A stretch of DNA of 64,000 nucleotides from the NCBI GenBank assembly GCA_022574775.1, contig JACZRI010000003.1, positions 34,308 to 98,307 on the forward strand, read 5' to 3'. Below, in pieces: positions 3,744 through 62,817 of the stretch. A model generated the notes under the pieces. It was not told where the DNA came from. It saw only the letters and a list, made by a program, of their open reading frames with translations, and did not search any database. The translations under genes were made by a program, and so were the position numbers. Origin of the DNA: Patescibacteria group bacterium. GTDB lineage: Bacteria; Patescibacteriota; Minisyncoccia; Minisyncoccales; RBG-13-36-15. Each line of letters starts with the position of its first letter. Positions within the stretch are counted from its first letter, which is position 1.

Positions 3744-4760
3744 GTGTTTAAGGATAAGGTATACAATAAGAAGATGAAAAAGACGAGTTTGCAAAAGTTA
3801 CTACCAGGTTTAAAGAGAAATGTTTTACTAAAAAACTATACTACTTTTAAAATTGGGGGTGCCGCCCAATTTTTTTTTGTTGCGAAAAATAAAAAAGATG
3901 TAATGAAAGCAGTCCAAACGTCCAAAAAATTAAAGCTTCCATTTTTTATTCTAGGAGAGGGAAGTAATTTGTTGATATCTGATAGGGGATTTAAAGGGTT
4001 AGTTGTCAAAATACGAAATACGAAATACGAGATACCCCGCACCAGAACAAGTTCGGTGCGGGGCAGGCAAAACATTCTGGTTTATGCAGAAGCTGGGGTT
4101 TCTTTCCCTGTTTTGGTTAAGGCAACGACTGAATTGGGATTGTCTGGATTAGAGTGGGCAGGTGGATTGCCAGGTACTCTAGGTGGAGCAATAAGGGGTA
4201 ATGCAGGAGCATTTAGAGGAGAAATAAAAGATGTTATTTTGGAAGTTGAAGCTTTGGATGAAAAAGGTAATTTAAAAACATTATCTCGAAAGCAATGTAA
4301 TTTTTCTTATCGATCCTCTATTTTTAAAAAAAATAACTGGATTGTTTTATCAACTGCGCTAAAACTGGGAAAAGGAAATAAAAAATTGATTCAGTCGATT
4401 GCAAAAAGTCATATAAGATATCGAGAAGAAAAACATCCACTTGAATATCCTAATGCCGGCAGTATTTTTAAAAACTGTGACCTCAAAAAAATTCCAAAAA
4501 GACTAAGAGCCAGTTTTAATAAAGTTGTAAAGACAGATCCATTTCCATTAATACCTTCGGCCCACCTTATTTCAGAAGCTGGATTGAAAGGATTAAGAGT
4601 TGGCCAGGCAGAAGTTTCAACCAAGCACCCAAATTATATTGTTAATCTGGGTAATACTACAGCAAAAGATGTAATAAAATTAATAAATTTAGTAAAGAAA
4701 GAAGTAAAAGATAAATTTGGAATAGTATTAGAAGAGGAAATAAAACTTGTAGGGTTTTAA
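3744..4760 (+). CDS. murB: UDP-N-acetylenolpyruvoylglucosamine reductase MurB (alternative start at 3774); carries a 36 nt in-frame palindromic insertion at 4036-4071
   Basis: NYTTFKIGG and GEGSNLLISD FAD-binding motifs plus a MurB C-terminal domain. The PRTRTSSVRGRQ segment has no counterpart in reference MurB alignments. Confidence 0.8.
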   Translation: MFKDKVYNKKMKKTSLQKLLPGLKRNVLLKNYTTFKIGGAAQFFFVAKNKKDVMKAVQTSKKLKLPFFILGEGSNLLISDRGFKGLVVKIRNTKYEIPRTRTSSVRGRQNILVYAEAGVSFPVLVKATTELGLSGLEWAGGLPGTLGGAIRGNAGAFRGEIKDVILEVEALDEKGNLKTLSRKQCNFSYRSSIFKKNNWIVLSTALKLGKGNKKLIQSIAKSHIRYREEKHPLEYPNAGSIFKNCDLKKIPKRLRASFNKVVKTDPFPLIPSAHLISEAGLKGLRVGQAEVSTKHPNYIVNLGNTTAKDVIKLINLVKKEVKDKFGIVLEEEIKLVGF

Positions 4761-5171: not shown

Positions 5172-5606
5172 ATGAAAATTATTATTAAAACGAAAAATAT
5201 CAAATTAACAAAAAATTCACAAAAATATATTAATGACAAAATAAATTCTTTGGAAAAGTTTTCCAGAATTTTCCAACAAAACCAAAAATATTTTTTCAAA
5301 AAAACAGGAATAGTAATCCGGATAGAGATTGGAAAAGAAACCCTGCATCATAAAAAAGGAAATATTTTTTTCGTAAAATGCCAAATGAAACTTCTTGATA
5401 AAATCTTGCGAGCAGAAGTTGTTTCAAAAAATTTGCGGGAGGCAGTAAATGAAGTCAAAAATATTTTACAAAAAGAATTAAAGCAGTCTAAAGAAAAATT
5501 AACTTCCAAAAATTTAAGAAAAGCAAGAATTTTAAAAAAATCTTTCCACCTTTCTTCTCAAGCTCGCTTTTGGAGAAAAGGTAGAATAAGAGAAGAAGGA
5601 ATATGA
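5172..5606 (+). CDS. hpf: Ribosome hibernation promoting factor / RaiA family protein
   Basis: The size, beta-alpha-beta-beta-beta-alpha pattern, and the (I/V)xIxxG...TLH motif are typical of HPF/YfiA. Confidence 0.55.
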   Translation: MKIIIKTKNIKLTKNSQKYINDKINSLEKFSRIFQQNQKYFFKKTGIVIRIEIGKETLHHKKGNIFFVKCQMKLLDKILRAEVVSKNLREAVNEVKNILQKELKQSKEKLTSKNLRKARILKKSFHLSSQARFWRKGRIREEGI

Positions 5607-6145
5607 TTCCATCAAAATTTTTCTTTACCAAAGGAGTTGGGATAGCGAAAGAAAAACTGAGTTCTTTTGAGTTAGCTTTAAGAGACGCTGATATTGAGCA
5701 GTATAATTTAGTTTCTGTTTCCAGCATTTTACCACCCGGCTGTAAAAAAATTTCAAGAGACAAGGGAATATCTATGTTAAAACCAGGCGAGATTGTGTTT
5801 TGTATTATGGCTAGAAATGAAACGAATGAACCCAATAGATTGTTAGGAGCTGCAGTTGGTTTTGCGCTACCTACTGGAGATAAAAATTATGGTTATCTTT
5901 CTGAACATCATTCTTTTGGCGAGACAGAGGGGAAAGCAGGAGATTATGCCGAAGACTTAGCAGCTTCTATGTTAGCTTCTACTCTTGGAATTAAATTTAA
6001 TCCTGATGATGCCTGGGATACTAGAAAGCAAGCCTTTCGGTTAGGCGGAAAGATAGTCTATACTTCTAATGTTACCCAAACTGCCAAAGCTAACAAAAAT
6101 GGCCTGTGGACTTCAGTCTTAGCGGCAGTCATTTTTATTCCCTAA
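5603..6145 (+). CDS. pdaD: Pyruvoyl-dependent arginine decarboxylase
   Basis: MIPSKFFFTKGVG..FELALRDA..SVSSILPPGC closely matches the PdaD N-terminus, including the serinolysis site. Confidence 0.8.
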   Translation: MIPSKFFFTKGVGIAKEKLSSFELALRDADIEQYNLVSVSSILPPGCKKISRDKGISMLKPGEIVFCIMARNETNEPNRLLGAAVGFALPTGDKNYGYLSEHHSFGETEGKAGDYAEDLAASMLASTLGIKFNPDDAWDTRKQAFRLGGKIVYTSNVTQTAKANKNGLWTSVLAAVIFIP

Positions 6146-6168
6146 GGCATTTGGACCATTTTTTTGCA

Positions 6169-7317
6169 ATGAACAATAAACTTTCAAAAAAAGAAAAACA
6201 TCTTGCCAAACTTGTTTCTGAATACGCAAAACTGAACCTAAAAGAGTATAAAAAAGTAAGGAATATTACTCAAAAATACAAGACAAAAAAAGTTGAGACC
6301 ATTGATGTTAATTCCAAAAGTGTTTCTGAACTTTTATCTGCGATGGCAAAAACAGGTTTTCAGGGCAGGAAGCTTGGTGAAGTAGTTGATGTTTGGGAAG
6401 AGATGATTAAGGACAAGAATATAACTATCATAATGGGGTATACGGGTTCTTTAAGCACAACAGGTCAGTGGAAGATAATAAATTGGCTGATAGAAAATAG
6501 ATATATAGATGTTTTGGTTTCGACAGGAGCCAACATCTCTGAAGAGATTGTAGAGGGTATGGGGTATCATTACTGGCAAGGAAGCCAGAATGCTGATGAT
6601 GCTAAGTTATTAGATAGCGATATTAACAGGTATTATGATATTTTTGGGGACGATGTAGAGTATCTGGACATGATAAACTTGATAGCTAAATTTATCATGA
6701 CCTGTAAAGAAGGCTATAATTATTCTACAATGGAATTCCTGCGCGACTTTGGCCTGTGGTTGAATAAGAGAAAAGTAGACAGTATTGTAGGGGTTGCTGC
6801 CAAAGCCAAAGTTCCTGTTTTCAGTCCTGCTTTGGTAGATTCAGCGTATGGAGATGCTGTATTGATAGCAAAGAGTAAGAACTTCGATTTAATACTTGAT
6901 CAGGCAAAAGATTATGTAGAATTCATGGGTCTGGCAAGAAAGGTAAAGGATATCGGAGTAATTTACATAGGCGGTGGCGTACCAAAAGACTTCATTCAAC
7001 TTTTAGCGGTATCTGCGCCTCTTGAATATTATGATAAAAAAATACCTGACAGATCTGGAGGCGTTTTTCGTCCTGCAACCAACGAATGGTTTTATCCTCA
7101 CAAGTATGCTATACAAATAACTACTGACAGTCCGCAATGGGGAGGCCTTTCGGGATGCACTTTCGAAGAAGCGAGCAGCTGGGGCAAAGAAGAACCAGGT
7201 GGCAAGAATGTAACGTGCTACTGCGATGCCACCATAGCCTTGCCGATTGTCACACATGCTTTGGCAGAAAGAATCAAAACAAAAAGAAAAGGTACTGATT
7301 TTTCCGACCTTTTTTAA
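6169..7317 (+). CDS. Deoxyhypusine synthase-like protein (DHS family)
   Basis: The GSLSTTG...LVSTGANISEE Rossmann-like DHS signature is present, and the gene sits between pdaD and speB. Confidence 0.65.
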   Translation: MNNKLSKKEKHLAKLVSEYAKLNLKEYKKVRNITQKYKTKKVETIDVNSKSVSELLSAMAKTGFQGRKLGEVVDVWEEMIKDKNITIIMGYTGSLSTTGQWKIINWLIENRYIDVLVSTGANISEEIVEGMGYHYWQGSQNADDAKLLDSDINRYYDIFGDDVEYLDMINLIAKFIMTCKEGYNYSTMEFLRDFGLWLNKRKVDSIVGVAAKAKVPVFSPALVDSAYGDAVLIAKSKNFDLILDQAKDYVEFMGLARKVKDIGVIYIGGGVPKDFIQLLAVSAPLEYYDKKIPDRSGGVFRPATNEWFYPHKYAIQITTDSPQWGGLSGCTFEEASSWGKEEPGGKNVTCYCDATIALPIVTHALAERIKTKRKGTDFSDLF

Positions 7318-7326
7318 AGAATAAAA

Positions 7327-8190
7327 ATGAAGAAACCTTCTTATCCAACTTTGGAGCCTTTCAATTTTCTTGGCCTAGAAAAGCAAGATTATGAAAAAGC
7401 AAAAGTAATAATTTTCCCAGTTCCTTATAGCTCAACCACGTATTGGAAATCAGAAACAAAAGATGGGCCAAGAGCAATCATTGAGGCTTCCAGGCACTTG
7501 GAGCTTTACGATTTAGAGCTAAAAAAAGATCCCTCCAGAATAGGGATTTTTACGTTGGAGCAATTAGAACCATCAAAAGATTCTCCTAAAGCGACCATAG
7601 CCAGAATAAAAAAAATAATAAAAGATCTGTTAAAAGATGGGAAATTCCCCCTGATGATAGGGGGGGAACATTCAATTACTAACGGAGCTATTCAAGCTTT
7701 CAAAGAAAAATTTTTAAACTTTTCTGTTTTGCACATTGATGCCCATACAGATTCGAGAGATGAATTTGAAGGAACAAAATGGCATCATGCTTGTGTAATG
7801 AGAAGGGCAAGGGATTTTAAGATTCCAGTAACGCAAGTTGGAATTCGAAGTATTTCAGAAGAAGAAGCAGAATATTTTAAAAAGAAAAAGATTAAGAGTA
7901 TTTTTTATTCCCCAAATCTTCCGCTTAATAAAATCATTGCCACTTTGAAAAAAAATGTATATATAACCTTTGATTTAGACGTTTTTGATCCTTCTATTAT
8001 GCCCTCTGTGGGAACCCCAGAGCCTGGAGGTCTTGGCTGGTATGAAACCTTAGATCTTATTAGAGCAATTGCGAAAAAAAGAAAAATAATCGGAGCAGAC
8101 GTAGTAGAACTTTGCCCAATTCCAGGAATTTCTGCCCCTGATTTTTTAGCAGCAAAACTGGTGTATAAAATCATAAGCTATATAGCGTAA
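7327..8190 (+). CDS. speB: Agmatinase (arginase/ureohydrolase family)
   Basis: GGEHSIT, DAHTDSRD and DLDVFDPS..PGG manganese-binding motifs. Confidence 0.8.
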   Translation: MKKPSYPTLEPFNFLGLEKQDYEKAKVIIFPVPYSSTTYWKSETKDGPRAIIEASRHLELYDLELKKDPSRIGIFTLEQLEPSKDSPKATIARIKKIIKDLLKDGKFPLMIGGEHSITNGAIQAFKEKFLNFSVLHIDAHTDSRDEFEGTKWHHACVMRRARDFKIPVTQVGIRSISEEEAEYFKKKKIKSIFYSPNLPLNKIIATLKKNVYITFDLDVFDPSIMPSVGTPEPGGLGWYETLDLIRAIAKKRKIIGADVVELCPIPGISAPDFLAAKLVYKIISYIA

Positions 8191-8410: not shown

Positions 8411-8439
8411 TTGACAGATAATTATTATGGTATTATAAT
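8411..8439 (+). promoter_or_regulatory. Perfect-consensus sigma70 promoter (TTGACA-17-TATAAT)
   Basis: TTGACA at 8411-8416, a 17 nt spacer and TATAAT at 8434-8439, lying 40 nt upstream of a strong SD (AAGGGAGG) and the ATG at 8481. Confidence 0.6.
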
Positions 8440-8480
8440 AAATATAGAAACTAGGAAAGGAAGAAGAAAGGGAGGTTGGA

Positions 8481-8929
8481 TGACAACGATAGGAGAGCTG
8501 GAAGGTGTACAGCCTGGCGGTACGGTAATCGTTTCGGGGCAAGGCTACATCATCGTGGAGGTGGACGAGTACAAGTTCGGCGACTTTAAGTGGCTGAACC
8601 TGGTCTCTCATCATCAAGACAGCGAAAGGCTGATTGTCTTTGAAATCGCAGAAGGCAAAGTGAGGCGCTGGGATGAGGTTAATCTCCCTGGCGCTACGGT
8701 GGATGACGAGACCCTCGAGTACAAAAGAGAGAAGTTCGAGCGAGACGTGACGGGTATTCCCCACGTTTCAACCCATACCGAAGAGGAAGATGAAGAAGGC
8801 GAAATTTCTTACTCGGTCCTGGATGCTGAGTCTGAAAACAAACTTTTCATAAAGGAGAATGATGACGGTGAAGTCACTGTCTACTTCTCCGAAGGAACGG
8901 TTCCTCTCGACGCCATCCGGGTTCTGTAA
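8481..8929 (+). CDS. Hypothetical acidic protein encoded in a GC-rich (about 50%) island; the frame opens upstream at 8411
   Basis: A strong RBS (AAGGGAGG, 7 nt, ATG) and a terminator hairpin downstream. Its composition is strongly atypical for this genome. Confidence 0.5.
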
Positions 8930-25477: not shown

Positions 25478-25853
25478 GATTTTTAATGTCCTAGCAAGTC
25501 TATAAGCCGAATTCTGTATTTGTGTGATCATTTGTCTGGGCCCCGATTTACATCTGAGCTCAAGCGAACTACTCTTTCACAAAAATTCTAGATAAACCCA
25601 GAATTTCTGATTTGTTCTTGCACCCAATAAGGATTTAGCCGTTTCACTCCTACATTGCTGCAGGACTACTCCGACAATAGTCGGAGTGCTCAACCTTTCG
25701 GTTTCGCGCGTCTCTGTTCGCACCTCTAGTCTTACGACCGACGGCCGTTAACCGCTATATTTTTTGACCCCGATATCTATTCGGAGAAATGGTGTTCGGA
25801 CTTTCCTCCCCCTGTCATTGCTGGCAAGGAGTAATCACCCAACTTACTAGGAC
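25478..25853 (-). ncRNA. rnpB: RNase P RNA, bacterial type A
   Basis: The minus strand reads GGGGGAGGAAAGUCCGAACACC (P4 5' strand), GGAGUGAAACGGCU and ACAGAAUUCGGCUUAUAG (P4 3' strand). P1 pairs UCCUAGUAAGU with ACUUGCUAGGA, and the region is GC-enriched. Confidence 0.8.
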
Positions 25854-34330: not shown

Positions 34331-34446
34331 CTGTGGATATAATTTTAGTACGGGGTAAATAGGACTTGGTTCGCCTGCCCCGCTGTGCCTCCCCAGTAAC
34401 CTTGAGCATAGTTCGAGAGACCGAGAGGTGTTATTTACGAATTCTA

Positions 34447-34470
34447 AAATCGCCAAGAAGGCGGTTTTTT
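34447..34470 (+). terminator. Rho-independent terminator (member of a repeated terminator module)
   Basis: CGCCaagaaGGCG hairpin followed by T6. The same roughly 50 nt module recurs at 40872-40922, and its core at 46483-46508 and 44072-44128. Confidence 0.6.
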
Positions 34471-40286: not shown

Positions 40287-40868
40287 ATGAAAATATCAAA
40301 AGCAGAATTTATTAAAGGTGTTATCGGGGACGATTACGGTTTGGAAGACAATTTACCGCACATCGCTTTTTTTGGCCGTTCTAATGCGGGGAAATCAAGC
40401 GTGATTAACTCCTTAGTTGGCAAGAAAGATCTTGTAAAAACAAGCAAGATGCCAGGGAAAACACGTGAAGCGAATTTTTTCCGCATCAATGATTCTTTCT
40501 ATTTTGTGGATTTTCCCGGATATGGATATGCGAAGCGTTCGATATTAGAGCGCAACAAAATAATCAAAAGGATTTTTTGGTATGTGAAATTTTCCAATAC
40601 GAGGCCTAAAGCAGTTTTCTTAATTATTGACGCTAATGTCGGTTTGACTGCTCTTGATCGGGATATGATAAAAATTCTCGAGGCAAATAAACATCAAATT
40701 ATCATTATTGCAAACAAAATTGATAAATTGGCTAAAGGCGCTGCGGGAAAACAGCTTTCCTCAATCCAAAAAGAAGCGCGAGATATACTAGTTTTGGGAT
40801 ACTCGGCCAAAACAAACGAAGGAAAAGACGAATTAACTGAAAAAATTGCGGGTTTTGTAATAAAATAA
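40287..40868 (+). CDS. engB: Ribosome biogenesis GTP-binding protein EngB/YihA
   Basis: G1 GRSNAGKSS, G3 DFPGYGY, G4 NKID. Confidence 0.8.
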   Translation: MKISKAEFIKGVIGDDYGLEDNLPHIAFFGRSNAGKSSVINSLVGKKDLVKTSKMPGKTREANFFRINDSFYFVDFPGYGYAKRSILERNKIIKRIFWYVKFSNTRPKAVFLIIDANVGLTALDRDMIKILEANKHQIIIIANKIDKLAKGAAGKQLSSIQKEARDILVLGYSAKTNEGKDELTEKIAGFVIK

Positions 40869-40895
40869 GTCTGACCGAAACGCGTTATTTACGAA

Positions 40896-40930
40896 TTCTA
40901 AAATCACCAAGAAGGCGGTTTTCTTTTATT
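40896..40930 (+). terminator. Rho-independent terminator (repeat of the 34416-34468 module)
   Basis: CACCaagaaGGCGG hairpin followed by TTTTCTTTT. The upstream 30 nt are also shared with the 34416 copy. Confidence 0.55.
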
Positions 40931-40934
40931 AAAG

Positions 40935-41340
40935 AAAAGAGGGGAGCACGCCTGACTGACGCAACTCCCCTTGTTCGTTCGAAGACTCTGAGCACCTATT
41001 AAGAGAGGGCTATTTCACTGGCGACTTCACGGAAGCTGGCGCCCCCGCTTCATAGTCTCGCCCCTATTCTACACATTCTAAGAGGTGTTCCCTCCAACGG
41101 TATACTCCGCGAGTCAGAACCACTGGGAGGTTGAACCCAGCTCTCCCATCCATGTGGAGATTATCCCAACCAACGACTAGTCCTTTTTCCGAACGAACAT
41201 AGTTTTTTTATAACAATCCAAATAACGTGTCAATAGGGCAACAGAAAATCGTCAACCTGTCCGCCTGTGGAAGAAAAGCATGCCTCACACCGTCGAGTCA
41301 AACTCGACTGGTGCGGGGGTCCACGGCTACCAGTCGCTTA
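40935..41340. ncRNA. Candidate structured ncRNA in a GC-rich (about 50%) non-coding segment; identity unresolved
   Basis: 400 nt with no credible ORF, marked GC enrichment as seen for rnpB, and multiple GC hairpins (GGGGAGC...GCTCTCC, CTGGG-aggttgaa-CCCAG, GGTGCGGGGGTCCACGG). Confidence 0.3.
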
Positions 41341-41373
41341 GAAATTATGCTAAACTAAGTTTAGTGAAAAAAT

Positions 41374-41931
41374 ATGGTACTAACACAATCACAAACAAAA
41401 CTTCGTCTTGGAGATAAAGCTCCGGACTTTACCTTGCAAGGTATAGACGGCAAGAGATACTCTCTGTCAGATTTTGCTGACTCTGAAGGCTTTCTCCTCA
41501 TCTTTATATGCAATCACTGTCCATATGTGAAAGCAAAGATTGACGATATTGTAAAATTACATGAGCAATTTAAAGATAGGGTTGCTGTGGTAGGTGTTAA
41601 CAGCAATGACCCTGAATATCCTGGAGAGGGTATTGAAAACATGAAGAAATTTGCGCAGGAACGAAATATCACATTTCCCTATCTATTGGATGATACGCAG
41701 AAAGTTGCCAGGTCTTATGGCGCTACCTGTACTCCAGACCCGTTTCTTTTTGATAAAATGCAGCAATTGGTGTTTCATGGCAGAATAGATGATGCATTCA
41801 ATCCAGAAGATAAAGTGACTGAACGTACTATGGAAGACAACATTCAAAAGATGCTGAAGGGTGACAAAATAGACAGAGAACTTAAACCCTCAATGGGGTG
41901 TTCTATTAAATGGATTGAACCTGCCGCGTAA
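41374..41931 (+). CDS. Thioredoxin-fold redoxin (AhpC/TSA-like, CxxC)
   Basis: CNHCP active-site motif within the redoxin fold. Confidence 0.65.
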   Translation: MVLTQSQTKLRLGDKAPDFTLQGIDGKRYSLSDFADSEGFLLIFICNHCPYVKAKIDDIVKLHEQFKDRVAVVGVNSNDPEYPGEGIENMKKFAQERNITFPYLLDDTQKVARSYGATCTPDPFLFDKMQQLVFHGRIDDAFNPEDKVTERTMEDNIQKMLKGDKIDRELKPSMGCSIKWIEPAA

Positions 41932-46482: not shown

Positions 46483-46508
46483 AAAATCGCCAAGAAGGCG
46501 GTTTTTTG
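46483..46508 (+). terminator. Rho-independent terminator (same module as 34447)
   Basis: AAAATCGCCAAGAAGGCGGTTTTTTG. Confidence 0.6.
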
Positions 46509-58642: not shown

Positions 58643-59359
58643 ATGGAGGTGATTCCGGCCATTGATATCATTTCAGGTAAATGCGTAAGGTTAACGAGAG
58701 GGGATTATCAGTTAAAAAAGATTTATAACGATACTCCAATTAAGACAGCCAGACGTTTTGAAAGGGCCGGGTTCAGGAGATTACATCTTATAGATTTAGA
58801 AGGGGCAAGGGAGGGAAAAATAAAAAATTGGAAAAGCATAAAAAATATCGCAGAGAATACCAACCTTTTATTGCAAGTTGGCGGTGGCATTCATTCACAA
58901 GGAGATATAAAAACACTTTTTGACTTAGGGGTAGATAGAGTAATTTTAGGAACAGTTGCTATTAAGGAGTCTCAAAAACTGAAAAAGTTCTTAAAAAAAT
59001 TTGGAAACGAGAAAATTGCTGTTGCAGTTGATATAAGGAAAAACAAAATTTGCTACCGAGGTTGGCGAAAAGAGAAGAAAATTACTCTCCGTACATTCTT
59101 AAAGAGTTTGATTCGATTGGGAATAAAAACCGCTATTGTCACTGATATTGAGCGGGATGGCATGCTCAGAGGCCCGAACTTCTCCCTTTACAAGACACTG
59201 ATAAAGACCTTCTCAAATTTAGAAATAATCGCCTCGGGAGGAATAAGAACAAAGGAAGATTTGCAAAAACTTTCCAAAATTGGACTTTCTGGAGCAGTCG
59301 TGGGAAAAGCAATATATGAAAAGAAAATCCTGCTCAAGAATCTTAAAGCCTTTCTATGA
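58643..59359 (+). CDS. hisA: ProFAR isomerase HisA
   Basis: VIPAIDIISGKCVRL, the (beta/alpha)8 HisA/HisF fold, and a GG..SGAVVG phosphate-binding end. Confidence 0.8.
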   Translation: MEVIPAIDIISGKCVRLTRGDYQLKKIYNDTPIKTARRFERAGFRRLHLIDLEGAREGKIKNWKSIKNIAENTNLLLQVGGGIHSQGDIKTLFDLGVDRVILGTVAIKESQKLKKFLKKFGNEKIAVAVDIRKNKICYRGWRKEKKITLRTFLKSLIRLGIKTAIVTDIERDGMLRGPNFSLYKTLIKTFSNLEIIASGGIRTKEDLQKLSKIGLSGAVVGKAIYEKKILLKNLKAFL

Positions 59360-59952
59360 TCATTATCATTAACTATGGAATGGGAAACCTTAGGTCTCTC
59401 GCTAACGCTTTCCAGTTTTTAGGGGAAAAGGTAAAAATAATTGATAACCCAAAAGAAATCGAAAGGGCCCAAAAGATCGTATTTCCCGGTGTGGGGCATT
59501 TTGGGGAAGCAATGAGAAGTCTAAAAACAAGAAAGATTGATGGAGCGATTCAAACGCGTATTCATAAAGGAATTCCTTTTTTGGGTATCTGTCTGGGACT
59601 TCAGTTATTATTGGAAGAAAGCGAAGAGGCGCCAGGAGTGAAGGGCTTCGGAGTCTTTAAAGGAAAAGTTTTGAAATTTCAAAAAGTGAAAATTCCTCAA
59701 ATTGGCTGGAATCAAATAAAAATTCAAAGGAAAACGAAAATTCTTAAAGGTATTCAAGATAAAAGCTTCGTTTATTTTATGCACAGTTTTTATGTTAAAC
59801 CTTCAGATAAAAAGATTATAGTTTCGCAAACTCATTATGGAAAAGATTTCTGTTCAACTATTGAATCAGAAAATATCTTTGGAGTTCAGTTTCATCCCGA
59901 AAAAAGTGGAGCGGTTGGACTCCAAATTCTAAGAAATTTTATTAAACTTTAA
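59356..59952 (+). CDS. hisH: Imidazole glycerol phosphate synthase glutaminase subunit HisH
   Basis: Class I GATase with the GICLGLQ catalytic Cys and a FHPEKS His-Glu end. Confidence 0.8.
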   Translation: MIIIINYGMGNLRSLANAFQFLGEKVKIIDNPKEIERAQKIVFPGVGHFGEAMRSLKTRKIDGAIQTRIHKGIPFLGICLGLQLLLEESEEAPGVKGFGVFKGKVLKFQKVKIPQIGWNQIKIQRKTKILKGIQDKSFVYFMHSFYVKPSDKKIIVSQTHYGKDFCSTIESENIFGVQFHPEKSGAVGLQILRNFIKL

Positions 59953-60731
59953 TGTTAACCAGAAGAATAATACCTTGTTTAGATTGTGATTTGGGCATAA
60001 AAGGAGGAAGAGTGGTTAAAGGAATAAAATTTAAAAAAATAAGATATGCTGGTCTTCCATGGGAATTGGCTGAAAGGTATTATAAAGAAGGAGCCGATGA
60101 AATTGTCTTTTTAGATATTACTGCTTCTTATGAAAAAAGGGCGACAATGATAGAAATTGTCGAGAAGACTTGCCAAAGAGTGTTTATTCCAATTACGGTT
60201 GGAGGCGGAATTAAAAACATTGAAGATGCTCAAAAATTATTTAAGGCAGGAGCCGATAAAATCTCGATTAACACAGCTGCAATCCAAAGGCCTAAATTGG
60301 TTCAAGAATTAAGTAAAGCTTTCGGCTCTCAAGCAGTAGTAGTGGCAATTGACGCTAAAAGAAGATATAAAAAAGGAAGATGCTGGTTTGAGTGTTCAAT
60401 TTATGGGGGTAGAAAATTTACTGGAGTTGATGCTATTTTCTGGGCAAAAAAGGCAGCTAAACTGGGGGCTGGGGAAATTCTTTTAACGAGCATGGACAGA
60501 GATGGGACAAAACAAGGCTTTGATTTAGAACTCAATAAAAAAACTTCAGAAGCAATTTCCATTCCAGTCATTGCTTCGGGAGGAGTGGGAGAAAAAAGAC
60601 ATTTCCTCGAAGTTTTCAAAAAAACCAAAGTTAATGCCGCTTTGGCTGCCGGAACTCTGCATTTTAACAAAATATCAATACCAGAACTAAAAAAATATCT
60701 CAAAAGTAAAGGAATTAATGTAAGAGTATGA
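59952..60731 (+). CDS. hisF: Imidazole glycerol phosphate synthase cyclase subunit HisF
   Basis: RIIPCLD, DELVFLDI-like and SGGVG motifs. Confidence 0.85.
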   Translation: MLTRRIIPCLDCDLGIKGGRVVKGIKFKKIRYAGLPWELAERYYKEGADEIVFLDITASYEKRATMIEIVEKTCQRVFIPITVGGGIKNIEDAQKLFKAGADKISINTAAIQRPKLVQELSKAFGSQAVVVAIDAKRRYKKGRCWFECSIYGGRKFTGVDAIFWAKKAAKLGAGEILLTSMDRDGTKQGFDLELNKKTSEAISIPVIASGGVGEKRHFLEVFKKTKVNAALAAGTLHFNKISIPELKKYLKSKGINVRV

Positions 60732-61054
60732 AAAATTTAACAAAGAATCTTGACTGGAAAAAATTAAATGGTTTAATTCCGGTAATTGCCCAGGATTTTA
60801 AAACAGAAAAAGTTTTAATGCTCGGTTTTATGAATAGAGAAGCTCTAAAGAAAACTTTAAAAGAAGGAAAAATTACTTATTTCAGTCGGGTAAGAAAAAA
60901 ACTCTGGACAAAAGGAGAAACCTCTGGGCATTTCTTGCAAACTAAAGCAATTTGGGTTGATTGCGATAATGATACTCTTTTAATTAGGGTGAAAGCACAG
61001 GGTAATGTTTGTCACACCGGTCATAAAAGCTGTTTTTATAGGAAAATTCTATGA
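60728..61054 (+). CDS. hisI: Phosphoribosyl-AMP cyclohydrolase HisI (no fused HisE)
   Basis: LIPVIAQD...SRVRKKLWTKGETSGH...DCDNDTLLIRV. Confidence 0.8.
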   Translation: MKNLTKNLDWKKLNGLIPVIAQDFKTEKVLMLGFMNREALKKTLKEGKITYFSRVRKKLWTKGETSGHFLQTKAIWVDCDNDTLLIRVKAQGNVCHTGHKSCFYRKIL

Positions 61055-61935
61055 AAAAAGAAAAGAAAATAAAAATAGGAATTCCAACCAGATTTTTACT
61101 TCTACCAACTTTAACAATTTTTAGAGCTGCAGGTTACAATCTCGAAGTTGATGAGAAAACCTTTCAAGTAAAAATTGATGATCCAGAAATCGAATGTTTT
61201 CCGGGAAGAACGCGAGAAATAGCTGAAAGAGTGGGAGATGGTATTCTGGATGCTGGAATTTCAAGGAAAGATAGAGTTTTGGCAAGTGGGGTCAAAGTCC
61301 GTGAAATTTGCGACTTAGATTATAACAGAACGGAGACCTGGGAAAAGGGAAAAATTGTTTTAGTTGTGCCAAAGACCTCAAAGATTAAAACCTTGAAGGA
61401 TCTCAATGGGAAAACAATCATTACTAGATTTCCTGAAATTACGAAAAAATTTTTAAAAAGGCATAAAGTCTCAGCCAAGATTGAAACTTCTGATACTCCA
61501 AACGAGTTTCAGATAGGCAAATTAGTTGATGCAGGAGTCGAATTTACTTTGACCGGCAGCACTTTGGCGGCTAACAATCTAAAACCTCTGGCAGTTTTAA
61601 TGGAAACTTCGGCAATTTTTATTGCTAATGAAAAATCCCTTAAAGATAAATGGAAAAGAGAAAAGATAGAAAACTTAGCGATTTTACTTAAGGGAGCAAG
61701 GTTGGCTCAAGAAATGGCAGGATTGATGCTTCATGCCTCAAATAAAATGATGGAAGAAGTTCTTGAGATTTTACCAGCCCTGAAAAAACCAACCGTAACT
61801 CAATTAAGAGGTGAAAACTGGTTTGATGTTCTTACCGTTGCAAATAAAAAAGAGATAAGAAAAATTATTCCAAGACTTAAAAAAATTGGCTGTACCGACA
61901 TCATTGAATTTCCTTTAAATAAAGTTGTAATCTAA
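61051..61935 (+). CDS. hisG: ATP phosphoribosyltransferase HisG (long form), copy 1
   Basis: KIGIPTRF, DAGISRKD and the LTGSTL PRPP-binding region, plus a C-terminal regulatory domain. Confidence 0.7.
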   Translation: MKKEKKIKIGIPTRFLLLPTLTIFRAAGYNLEVDEKTFQVKIDDPEIECFPGRTREIAERVGDGILDAGISRKDRVLASGVKVREICDLDYNRTETWEKGKIVLVVPKTSKIKTLKDLNGKTIITRFPEITKKFLKRHKVSAKIETSDTPNEFQIGKLVDAGVEFTLTGSTLAANNLKPLAVLMETSAIFIANEKSLKDKWKREKIENLAILLKGARLAQEMAGLMLHASNKMMEEVLEILPALKKPTVTQLRGENWFDVLTVANKKEIRKIIPRLKKIGCTDIIEFPLNKVVI

Positions 61936-61941
61936 ATATAT

Positions 61942-62817
61942 ATGGCTTTGAAACTAAAACTTGGAATTCCCAAAGGATCGCTTCAAAATTATACTTTAAA
62001 AATATTTAAGGAAGCTGGATTTAATATTGATATCCCTGAAAGGGGGTATTTTTTAAAAATTGATGATCCGGAAATTGACTGCTTTTTATTGAGACCCCAG
62101 GAAATCCCGAAATATATTGAAAAAAGAAAATTAGATTTAGGCATCAGCGGCGATGATTGGATTTTAGAGTCAAGGGCAAAAGTAATTGAGGTTTGTGACT
62201 TGAAATACGCGAAACAAGAAATGAAAAAGGTCAAATGGGTTTTAGCAGTTCCTGAAAATTCAAAAATAAAATCTATAAAAGATCTTGAAGGAAAAATCAT
62301 TTCCACGGAAATAGTTAATTTGGTAAAAGACTATTTAAGAAAAAATAAAGTTAAGGCCAAGGTTGAATTCTCCTGGGGGGCGGCCGAGATAAAACCTCCA
62401 AGGTTTGCTGACGCCATTGTTGATATCACCGAAACCGGGGCTTCTCTCAAAGCTCATAATTTAAAAATTCTAGATACAATTTTGGTAAGTTCAACAAAAC
62501 TAATCACGAATAAGGAAGCTTGGAAAAATAAATGGAAAATAAAAAAAATAAAAGATCTGGCTCTTTTACTTCAAGGGGCTGTTCGAGGCGAAGGGGCAGT
62601 AAGTTTAATAATGCATGTTCCCGGGGAGAAATTAAACAGAATTTTAAAAGTTTTACCAAAATTAAAATCGCCGACTGTCAGGAAAACCGCTGGTCAAAAT
62701 TGGTATGATGTTATAATTTCTTGCAAAGAGGAAGAGGCTAGAGAATTAATTCCAAAGTTAAAAAGAATGGGCGGTCAAGGGATTGTTGAATTCCCAATAA
62801 TTAAACTGGTGCCGTAA
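61942..62817 (+). CDS. hisG: ATP phosphoribosyltransferase HisG paralog, copy 2 (tandem duplicate)
   Basis: Same architecture as copy 1: LGIPKGSL, LGISGDDW and TETGASL. Confidence 0.7.
   Translation: MALKLKLGIPKGSLQNYTLKIFKEAGFNIDIPERGYFLKIDDPEIDCFLLRPQEIPKYIEKRKLDLGISGDDWILESRAKVIEVCDLKYAKQEMKKVKWVLAVPENSKIKSIKDLEGKIISTEIVNLVKDYLRKNKVKAKVEFSWGAAEIKPPRFADAIVDITETGASLKAHNLKILDTILVSSTKLITNKEAWKNKWKIKKIKDLALLLQGAVRGEGAVSLIMHVPGEKLNRILKVLPKLKSPTVRKTAGQNWYDVIISCKEEEARELIPKLKRMGGQGIVEFPIIKLVP

Follow-up and report, generated by a model that had tools for sequence, protein, structure and literature searches.

This study concerns a GC-rich non-coding element in a 64-kb stretch of DNA (64,000 nucleotides, nt; hereafter the window) from a Nealsonbacteria-like member of the Patescibacteria (Candidate Phyla Radiation, CPR), whose EngB is up to 93-95% identical to proteins of metagenome-assembled genomes of the Nealsonbacteria group. 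The element lies in a gap of 505 nt (40869-41373) between the genes encoding EngB/YsxC and an AhpC/TSA-type redoxin, both on the plus strand. A sequence-only reading had described a GC-rich, non-coding segment at this position and proposed it as a candidate structured RNA. The GC content of 200-nt windows spanning 40861-41240 reached 0.555, the peak of the window (mean, 0.367; standard deviation, 0.052), and the longest stop-to-stop frame within the gap was 51 amino acids (aa). No Pfam match at E ≤ 1 was obtained with the 10 longest frames of the gap (six-frame pieces), and a coding remnant was rejected on this result. The composition and the non-coding nature of the segment were thus confirmed. 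The non-coding stretch (40931-41340) consists of two distinct GC-rich parts, a unit of approximately 270 nt (40931-41200) and a long hairpin (41262-41327). The minus strand of the former contains a complete homologue of the L1 stalk of 23S rRNA, namely helices 76, 77, and 78 (H76, H77, and H78).

A permissive BLAST search of the segment against a plasmid collection gave 32 matches, all to query bases 92-157 and all on replicons known to bear rRNA operons (Aureimonas pAU20rrn, Azospirillum, and Phyllobacterium). Analysis of two matched plasmid loci with cmscan located the matches inside the 23S (large subunit, LSU) rRNA, on the strand opposite to the plus strand of the window. It follows that the minus strand carries the RNA sense of the element, which had first been read on the plus strand. 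The identity to the 23S rRNA of Phyllobacterium was 81% (59/73) and that to Aureimonas 75% by BLAST. When aligned with rrlH of Escherichia coli, the element corresponded to positions approximately 2090-2200, which comprise H76, H77, and H78. A covariance model was then built from 18 genuine 23S L1 stalks, with the element excluded; the references were nine phylogenetically diverse bacterial 23S rRNAs and nine sequences of CPR taken from the alignment that supplements PMC12641178. In the 64-kb window this model gave a single match, at 41090-40990 on the minus strand, which covered positions 1-104 of 104 with 74 bits (E = 7.7e-17).

The canonical three-helix topology of H76-H78 was retained. Covariation gave strong support to the canonical structure: in an alignment of the nine diverse bacterial 23S rRNAs and the element, 91.6% of the cells were paired and 20 double-changed pairs were found, whereas slid controls gave 38-51% paired cells. 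Five of five pairs were kept in H77 and 13 of 14 in H78. Compared with E. coli, compensatory changes occurred in H77 (U-A to G-C and G-C to C-G) and in H78 (G-C to A-U), and every change in H77 and H78b was compensatory or wobble. The minimum free energy (MFE) structure of the isolated 105-nt segment consisted of H76, H77, and H78. The double T-loop core of the stalk, AGNN(U)A...UGNNA, is formed by invariant residues in two bulge loops (PMC3664808). This core is intact in the element (AGAAUA...UGAAA), in which the two loops read UGUAGAAUA and GCCAGUGAAAUA, and the co-varying loop positions of the A2117/U2172 type match each other as in the 23S rRNA of Paceibacteria. The GC content of the L1-stalk segment is 0.52, in a genome of 0.37.

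On both sides the homology ends at the base of H76. The universally conserved neighbors of the stalk, GACGGAAAGACCCCGUG (H73-75) upstream and GGGUAGUUUGACUGGGGCGGU (H80) downstream, are missing from the element in comparison with the nine bacterial 23S rRNAs, and no other rRNA-like sequence was present in the window. The possibility that the element is a 23S (LSU) rRNA gene was rejected on these missing flanks and on the lack of an RF02541 match either at the gathering threshold or at E ≤ 10; the same Rfam search recovered full-length LSU rRNA in two control loci (L089 and L090). The Rfam LSU_rRNA_bacteria model was thus silent on the stalk of approximately 100 nt (E ≤ 10, 40800-41450), which the dedicated small model scored at 74 bits. 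No known RNA family was matched at the gathering thresholds of Rfam 15, and at E ≤ 10 the sole matches were snoR9 and wcaG, at chance level. Neither a tRNA nor a transfer-messenger RNA (tmRNA) was detected by ARAGORN, and covariance models of signal recognition particle (SRP) RNA, 6S RNA, RNase P, group I/II introns, and T-box gave no match, so that none of the tmRNA, SRP RNA, 6S RNA, or intron-fragment identities considered in the sequence-only reading applies. To judge from its sequence, the element would work like an L1 stalk, yet it is not a member of a 23S rRNA.

The L1-stalk homologue is embedded in a larger unit. The features of the unit, in the direction of the predicted transcript, and those around it are as follows.

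41233-41207, minus strand: putative sigma-70-type promoter, with TTGACA at 41233-41228, a 15-nt spacer ending in TGn at 41215-41213, and TATAAA at 41212-41207
near 41200, minus strand: predicted transcription start, placed from the promoter
41200-40931, minus strand: predicted transcript of approximately 270 nt (closing helix, 5' branch, L1 stalk, and terminator), with ends placed from the promoter and terminator signals
41198-41187, minus strand: 5' strand of the closing helix P1 (GUUCGUUCGGAA), which pairs with 40973-40983 in the MFE fold
41186-41116, minus strand: 5' branch of approximately 70 nt, with the hairpins UCUCC-N9-GGAGA and T-loop-like CUGGG-UUCAACCU-CCCAG (41140-41123)
41115-41111 with 40988-40984, minus strand: helix P2 (GACUC with GAGUC) in the MFE fold, enclosing the linker and the L1 stalk
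41110-41091, minus strand: linker of 20 nt between P2 and the L1 stalk
40990-41090, minus strand: complete L1-stalk homologue, 23S helices 76-77-78 (E. coli positions approximately 2093-2196), by covariance model and BLAST
40983-40973, minus strand: 3' strand of P1 (UUCGAACGAAC), by MFE fold and inverted repeat
40970-40941, minus strand: intrinsic-terminator-like hairpin GGGGAGUUGCGUC-AGUCA-GGCGUGCUCCCC, followed by the U tract UCUUUUCUUU at 40940-40931
40287-40868, plus strand: EngB/YsxC gene, upstream neighbor of the gap
40873-40930, plus strand: 3' untranslated region (UTR) of EngB with a terminator motif (GACCGAAACGCGTTATTTACGAATTCTAAAATCACCAAGAAGGCGGTTTTC), convergent with the RNA unit and outside it
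41262-41327, strand not assigned: further GC-rich element that forms a long imperfect hairpin, located upstream of the promoter and 47 nt from the redoxin ATG
41374-41931, plus strand: AhpC/TSA-type redoxin gene, downstream neighbor of the gap

The two strands of P1 show perfect complementarity over 10 nt (inverted repeat I3, 100%), or 11-12 bp when wobble pairs are counted. The MFE of the whole unit was -104.7 kcal/mol (z = -3.2 compared with dinucleotide shuffles), with P1/P2 and the terminator accounting for most of the excess stability. No homologue of the 5' branch was detectable, its BLAST comparison with 23S rRNA giving no match beyond chance. Its hairpin CTGGG-AGGTTGAA-CCCAG (41123-41140), pointed out in the sequence-only reading, is real. 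On the other hand, the tRNA-like acceptor pairing of GGGGAGC (around 40940) with GCTCTCC (around 41145) suggested there found no support: GGGGAG at 40941-40946 pairs locally, with CTCCCC at 40965-40970, in the terminator-type hairpin. A simple terminator scanner missed this hairpin because its stem is bulged.

The motif TTGACA-N14-18-TATAAW occurred twice in the 64 kb on both strands, against an expectation of 0.21. One of the two matches points into the unit and ends approximately 7 nt before P1; the other drives a real gene at 8481 that has a clear Shine-Dalgarno (SD) site. The rnpB gene of the same genome has TTGACA-N17-TACAAT before it and a similar terminator behind it. Since rnpB and the gene at 8481 share the TTGACA type of −35 sequence, the signals of the unit are of the kind that this organism uses, and 41233-41207 would act as a promoter. 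A promoter and an intrinsic terminator in the correct order and orientation, as expected of a small RNA (sRNA) gene, are thus present as sequence signals. Taken together, the L1-stalk domain is complete, its core is intact, its boundaries are those of a structural module, and promoter, terminator, and closing-helix signals are present.

The evidence on the origin of the L1-stalk copy is mixed. The loop sequences GUAGA-AUAG and GCC-AGUGAAAUA are of the Paceibacteria 23S type, and the rare C-G last pair of H77 (GGC|GAG...AGCC) was found elsewhere solely in the single Nealsonbacteria 23S rRNA of the published alignment (CPR plus Rfam seed; PMC12641178, Supplementary Data 3). The H78 apical stem-loop was nearest to those of alphaproteobacteria. 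The identity to the stalks of Paceibacteria was 61-73% over the core and 76-82% without the H78 apical stem. Because of the alphaproteobacteria-like H78 apex and the 61-73% identity to Paceibacteria, the copy is not a recent duplicate of any 23S rRNA compared. Neither a 23S rRNA gene of the host nor rplA was found in the window or in its contig extension of at most 10 kb per end (64 kb plus approximately 15 kb).

The unit was seen in a single species, and over 30 relatives as well as phage and plasmid collections and metagenome and viral scans yielded no homologue of it as a whole. Exact look-ups of the EngB and the redoxin of the window returned the same four near-identical contigs only; the source is a metagenome contig of 156 kb (ENA). 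The relatives of EngB comprised 23 genomes at 77-93% aa identity and two closer metagenome sequences (L092 and L093) at 94-95%; in none of these 25 loci was either flank of the unit shared, and no BLAST or covariance-model match was obtained. The L1-stalk model likewise gave no match in 279 kb of related loci. Redoxin relatives at 73-74% were not syntenic. Mobile-element ends were sought, and solely an 11-nt imperfect inverted repeat (40880-40890 with 41220-41230) was found, which is unconvincing. A metagenome scan with the 20-mer GTGTAGAATAGGGGCGAGAC gave nothing. A scan with the T-loop hairpin plus ATGTGTAG gave two matches (L094 and L095), which were dismissed as chance, no L1 sequence following the motif. 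E. coli genomes contained no match to the element at E ≤ 0.01, and a search for spurious reading frames called over rRNA, with the 43-aa antisense frame as the query, returned no candidate.

Based on the domain and its signals, we tentatively favor the view that 40931-41200 encodes, on its minus strand, an sRNA of approximately 270 nt with transcription of its own, which adopted the L1-stalk fold and works as a mimic; this proposal is nearly as apt to be right as wrong. The unit would be transcribed from its own promoter to its terminator to give a stable RNA with paired ends, and this RNA would mimic the ribosomal L1 stalk, offering the platform with which the ribosome contacts the elbow of deacylated tRNA by stacking and binds protein uL1. 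In ribosomes, the tRNA elbow docks on the double T-loop platform of the L1 stalk, a device that T-box Stem I and RNase P employ outside the ribosome (PMC3664808). Paceibacteria keep H78 and mostly lack rplA (uL1) and der (PMC12641178), and uL1-less Parcubacteria tend to lack the anti-SD sequence (PMC9297842). An SD-like motif was found at 9 of the 67 gene starts of the window, which fits the anti-SD-less, uL1-less Parcubacteria subgroup of PMC9297842. The most plausible ligand of the RNA would therefore be a tRNA elbow or a tRNA-like RNA rather than uL1, because Paceibacteria, the class to which the organism belongs, mostly have no uL1 gene. The more specific idea that a CPR bacterium, probably without uL1, expresses a free trans-acting L1 stalk, which docks tRNA (or tRNA-like) elbows outside the ribosome, seems doubtful. 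Such a stalk could sequester or sense deacylated tRNA, and the T-loop hairpin of its own 5' branch is a possible partner.

Several results weigh against an independent sRNA. H76 is loosened, with 7 of 18 pairs in the canonical register compared with 15-17 of 18 in the reference 23S rRNAs (its own best fold has approximately 12 bp with an internal loop), and the element differs at 9 of the 48 columns that are invariant in the nine non-CPR references. When folded alone, the L1 part (z = -0.36) and the 5' branch (z = +0.34) were no more stable than shuffled sequences, and a closing helix of 10-11 bp arising by chance within 270 nt is only mildly improbable. The unit was not next to EngB in any of the 25 relatives (77-95% aa), the closest redoxin relative (89%) has 81 nt of upstream sequence, which is AT-rich and unrelated, and the locus is a synteny breakpoint, synteny with relatives stopping at the unit. 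The assemblies of the species are 99.97-100% identical and so carry no population signal. Two viral scans and a search of a phage collection gave no homologue of the unit. There is no support from covariation or conservation beyond the inherited L1 fold; since no homologue was found, the parts not inherited from rRNA have no comparative evidence for or against selection. The sequence-only reading had itself named the lack of an Rfam match, the lack of conservation in relatives, and evidence of a degraded gene remnant as grounds for refuting it. For the most part these are what was found, no relative having the unit and the domain deriving from part of another gene, and its case is accordingly weak. 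Of its candidate structured RNA, the structured domain stands as the L1 stalk, and a conserved new RNA family is unsupported on these same grounds. The promoter, terminator, and closing helix nevertheless suggest that a lineage-specific, rRNA-derived sRNA is a live possibility.

The main rival is that the unit is an inert relic. A fragment of a 23S gene would have been captured, or would have stayed behind, where a rearrangement joined the EngB block to the redoxin-malic enzyme block. Its RNA would have no function, and the apparent promoter, terminator, and closing helix would be due to chance or be part of the neighboring genes. A relic would agree with the restriction of the unit to one species exactly where synteny with all relatives ends, the lack of a homologue in any collection searched, the degenerate H76 with its changed invariant columns, and the lack of excess stability in the non-L1 parts. 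The terminator hairpin could equally serve the convergent engB, and the outcome of the grounds for refutation given above points the same way. A random fragment, however, should break arbitrarily, whereas both ends of the element fall at the base of H76, without the ultra-conserved flanks. The purely compensatory or wobble changes in H77 and H78b, the intact tertiary core motif, and a GC content that is still well above that of the genome also argue against a relic. Furthermore, a perfect TTGACA with an extended −10 sequence is rare in the window and here is properly placed and oriented, and 500 nt of junk would be unusual in the compact genomes of CPR. We regard an inert relic as a real but lesser possibility, and the remaining rivals are minor. 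Among these, it appears very unlikely that the functional strand is the plus strand, on which the segment or the 41262-41327 hairpin would be part of the redoxin mRNA, as a structured 5' leader or a regulatory element, or would form an extended engB terminator region. The L1-like segment would then be an irrelevant antisense passenger. The hairpin does lie 47-112 nt before the redoxin ATG, and the plus strand folds well (z = -2.97 for 40920-41210 and -2.09 for 41225-41375). Against this, only the minus strand is homologous to a real RNA, no plus-strand promoter was found upstream of the segment, and the region upstream of the closest redoxin relative is unrelated. In addition, most genes of the window have no SD sequence, and in several the ATG follows a −10 box by a few nt, which means that long leaders are not the rule.

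A uL1 autoregulatory site or decoy, which would titrate uL1 like the L1-binding mimics in rplK-rplA or archaeal L1-operon mRNAs, would draw on established knowledge of rRNA mimicry by uL1 operators, and in H77, H78, and the loops the unit has everything that makes up the natural binding site of uL1. However, no ribosomal protein (r-protein) operon is nearby, and tblastn with L11, L1, L10, and L12 of E. coli found no homologue in the window; as the unit is convergent with engB, no downstream gene would be controlled, and the unit is not placed like a uL1 mRNA operator. Known operators copy approximately 20-50 nt and not the whole stalk, and the H77 pair G2124-C2174 is flipped to C-G in the element. 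Paceibacteria mostly lack rplA, and the nine SD-motif genes of 67 fit the SD-poor trait that accompanies uL1 loss (PMC9297842). Because of these traits of a uL1-less group and the absence of an r-protein gene nearby, an operator or decoy role is highly improbable. Least probable of all is a split ribosome, in which helices 76-78 would be missing from the 23S rRNA gene of the host and this locus would furnish the stalk in trans, much as organellar rRNAs can come in fragments. In favor of this, the unit is a whole module that could be transcribed separately and has a closing helix of its own, and variation around the L1 stalk is known among CPR ribosomes (PMC9297842, PMC12641178). Nevertheless, Paceibacteria are reported to keep H78, the L1 stalk is in line and normal in the sole Nealsonbacteria 23S rRNA of the published set, no gene of this kind was found near EngB in relatives with 77-95% EngB identity, and the unit offers no single-stranded segment for anchoring to the 50S subunit.

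If expressed, the unit would be a clear case of an rRNA domain that was duplicated, excised at structural boundaries, and reused as a separate sRNA, and it would give a tractable experimental handle on L1-stalk RNA alone, for example on tRNA-elbow binding. To our knowledge, the tRNA-elbow-binding RNAs so far are T-box Stem I, RNase P, and the L1 stalk itself; a free L1 stalk that docks tRNA elbows would be the first rRNA-derived member of this class. No report of a free-standing, separately transcribed L1-stalk paralogue was found in the literature searched. The reuse would have come about in a lineage, the Patescibacteria/CPR, for which ribosomal variation around the L1 stalk, uL1, and Der is already on record (PMC9297842, PMC12641178). 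If the unit is an inert relic, it cautions that "structured RNA" signals in GC-rich intergenic regions can be rRNA fragments. In either case, isolated rRNA modules can escape standard Rfam annotation.

The 3' UTR of EngB (40873-40930), the EngB-proximal portion of which is conserved among relatives, shows 97% identity over 39 nt to 34430-34468 and is partially repeated at 46483-46505. It contains a motif of approximately 50 nt, GACCGARAGG-GTTATTTACGAATTCTAAAATCRCCAAGAAGGCGGTTTTTT, which occurs at 34419-34468 after tRNA-Gln, at 40873-40922 after EngB, and at 46483-46505 after another gene, as well as in related genomes (L007, 3498-3532; L023, 3962-3984 and 4631-4666). A small terminator hairpin (CGCC-AAGAA-GGCG) with a T run closes the motif, which looks like a terminator or a repetitive extragenic palindromic (REP)-like element shared throughout the lineage. 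GC-rich non-coding stretches after tRNA-Gln or EngB were also seen at 34332-34430 of the window, at 4575-4850 of L003, and at 1590-1700 of L092. They have short motifs such as CTTGAGC..GTTCGAGAG.CCG and GAAATT.CCCTTTAAAAC..GG.TCTAAACCG in common and gave no Rfam or tRNA match. That of L003 extends over approximately 250 nt with a GC content of up to 61% and repeated GACCGAGAGG units. A further RNA or repeat family of Nealsonbacteria, as yet unannotated, may be represented by these stretches. In L021, two tandem GC-rich units of approximately 55 nt (CCTTCGCCTCGCTGAGCGGGGCTTCGCCTTGTAGGCTTCGGACGGACAAGGT) follow EngB directly (4600-4720). In L092, the closest EngB relative, a moderately GC-rich region of approximately 140 nt (1760-1900) precedes a gene for an NTP-transferase/CDP-alcohol phosphatidyltransferase and could be a leader RNA. 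The 41262-41327 hairpin of the window had fold z scores of -2.1 on the plus strand and -1.7 on the minus strand; it was not present in the 81-nt upstream region of L083, the closest redoxin relative, and no match to rRNA or Rfam was obtained.

The rnpB gene (class A RNase P; 25487-25850, minus strand) scored 125 bits against a gathering threshold of 100 and has a lineage-specific insertion near P3, a shortened P12 region, and a textbook promoter and terminator. The gene at 8481 lies in a GC-rich region (8411-8929; 0.53) and encodes 149 aa from the ATG at 8481, with no recorded Pfam family; its mechanically listed open reading frame begins inside the promoter (TTG at 8411). It may be foreign, because its perfect TTGACA-N17-TATAAT promoter and strong SD site (AAGGGAGG) are unlike those of most genes of the window. 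At several gene starts, a TATAAT-like box lies 6-8 nt ahead of the ATG, an indication that leaderless mRNAs are frequent in the window. Two regions (5172-8187 and 58643-62814) encode metabolism that is unexpected for CPR. The window contains a histidine biosynthesis cluster with two HisG-like genes, HisA/F, HisH, and PRA-CH, and a polyamine/hypusine-like set in which genes for a pyruvoyl arginine decarboxylase, a deoxyhypusine synthase, and an arginase-family protein adjoin.

The closest known counterpart of the element is the L1 stalk of bacterial 23S rRNA, with which it shares sequence homology, the three-helix topology, the AGNN(U)A...UGNNA core, and a GCCA-type H78 loop. It differs from that stalk in lying outside a 23S gene, in the missing H75, H79, and H80 flanks, in the loosened H76, and in the addition of an unrelated 5' branch of approximately 70 nt, a new closing helix, and its own promoter and terminator as sequence signals. 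The uL1 operators of rplK-rplA in bacteria and of the L1 operon in archaea likewise are extra-ribosomal RNAs that reproduce the uL1-binding surface of H77. These operators are short cis elements inside r-protein mRNAs that arose as mimics, whereas the element is a full-length stalk homologue in trans, far from r-protein genes, in a lineage that is probably without uL1. The best functional analogy for a free L1 stalk is given by the T-box Stem I apex and the J11/12-J12/13 module of RNase P. They are structural analogues without sequence homology to 23S rRNA, and the element has neither T-box or RNase P features nor an Rfam match to them. With orphan or partial rRNA fragments (pseudogenes), the element shares the condition of an isolated rRNA piece outside an rrn operon in one lineage. 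It differs from them in that its boundaries are those of a structural module, its pairing is kept, and transcription signals and a closing helix surround it.

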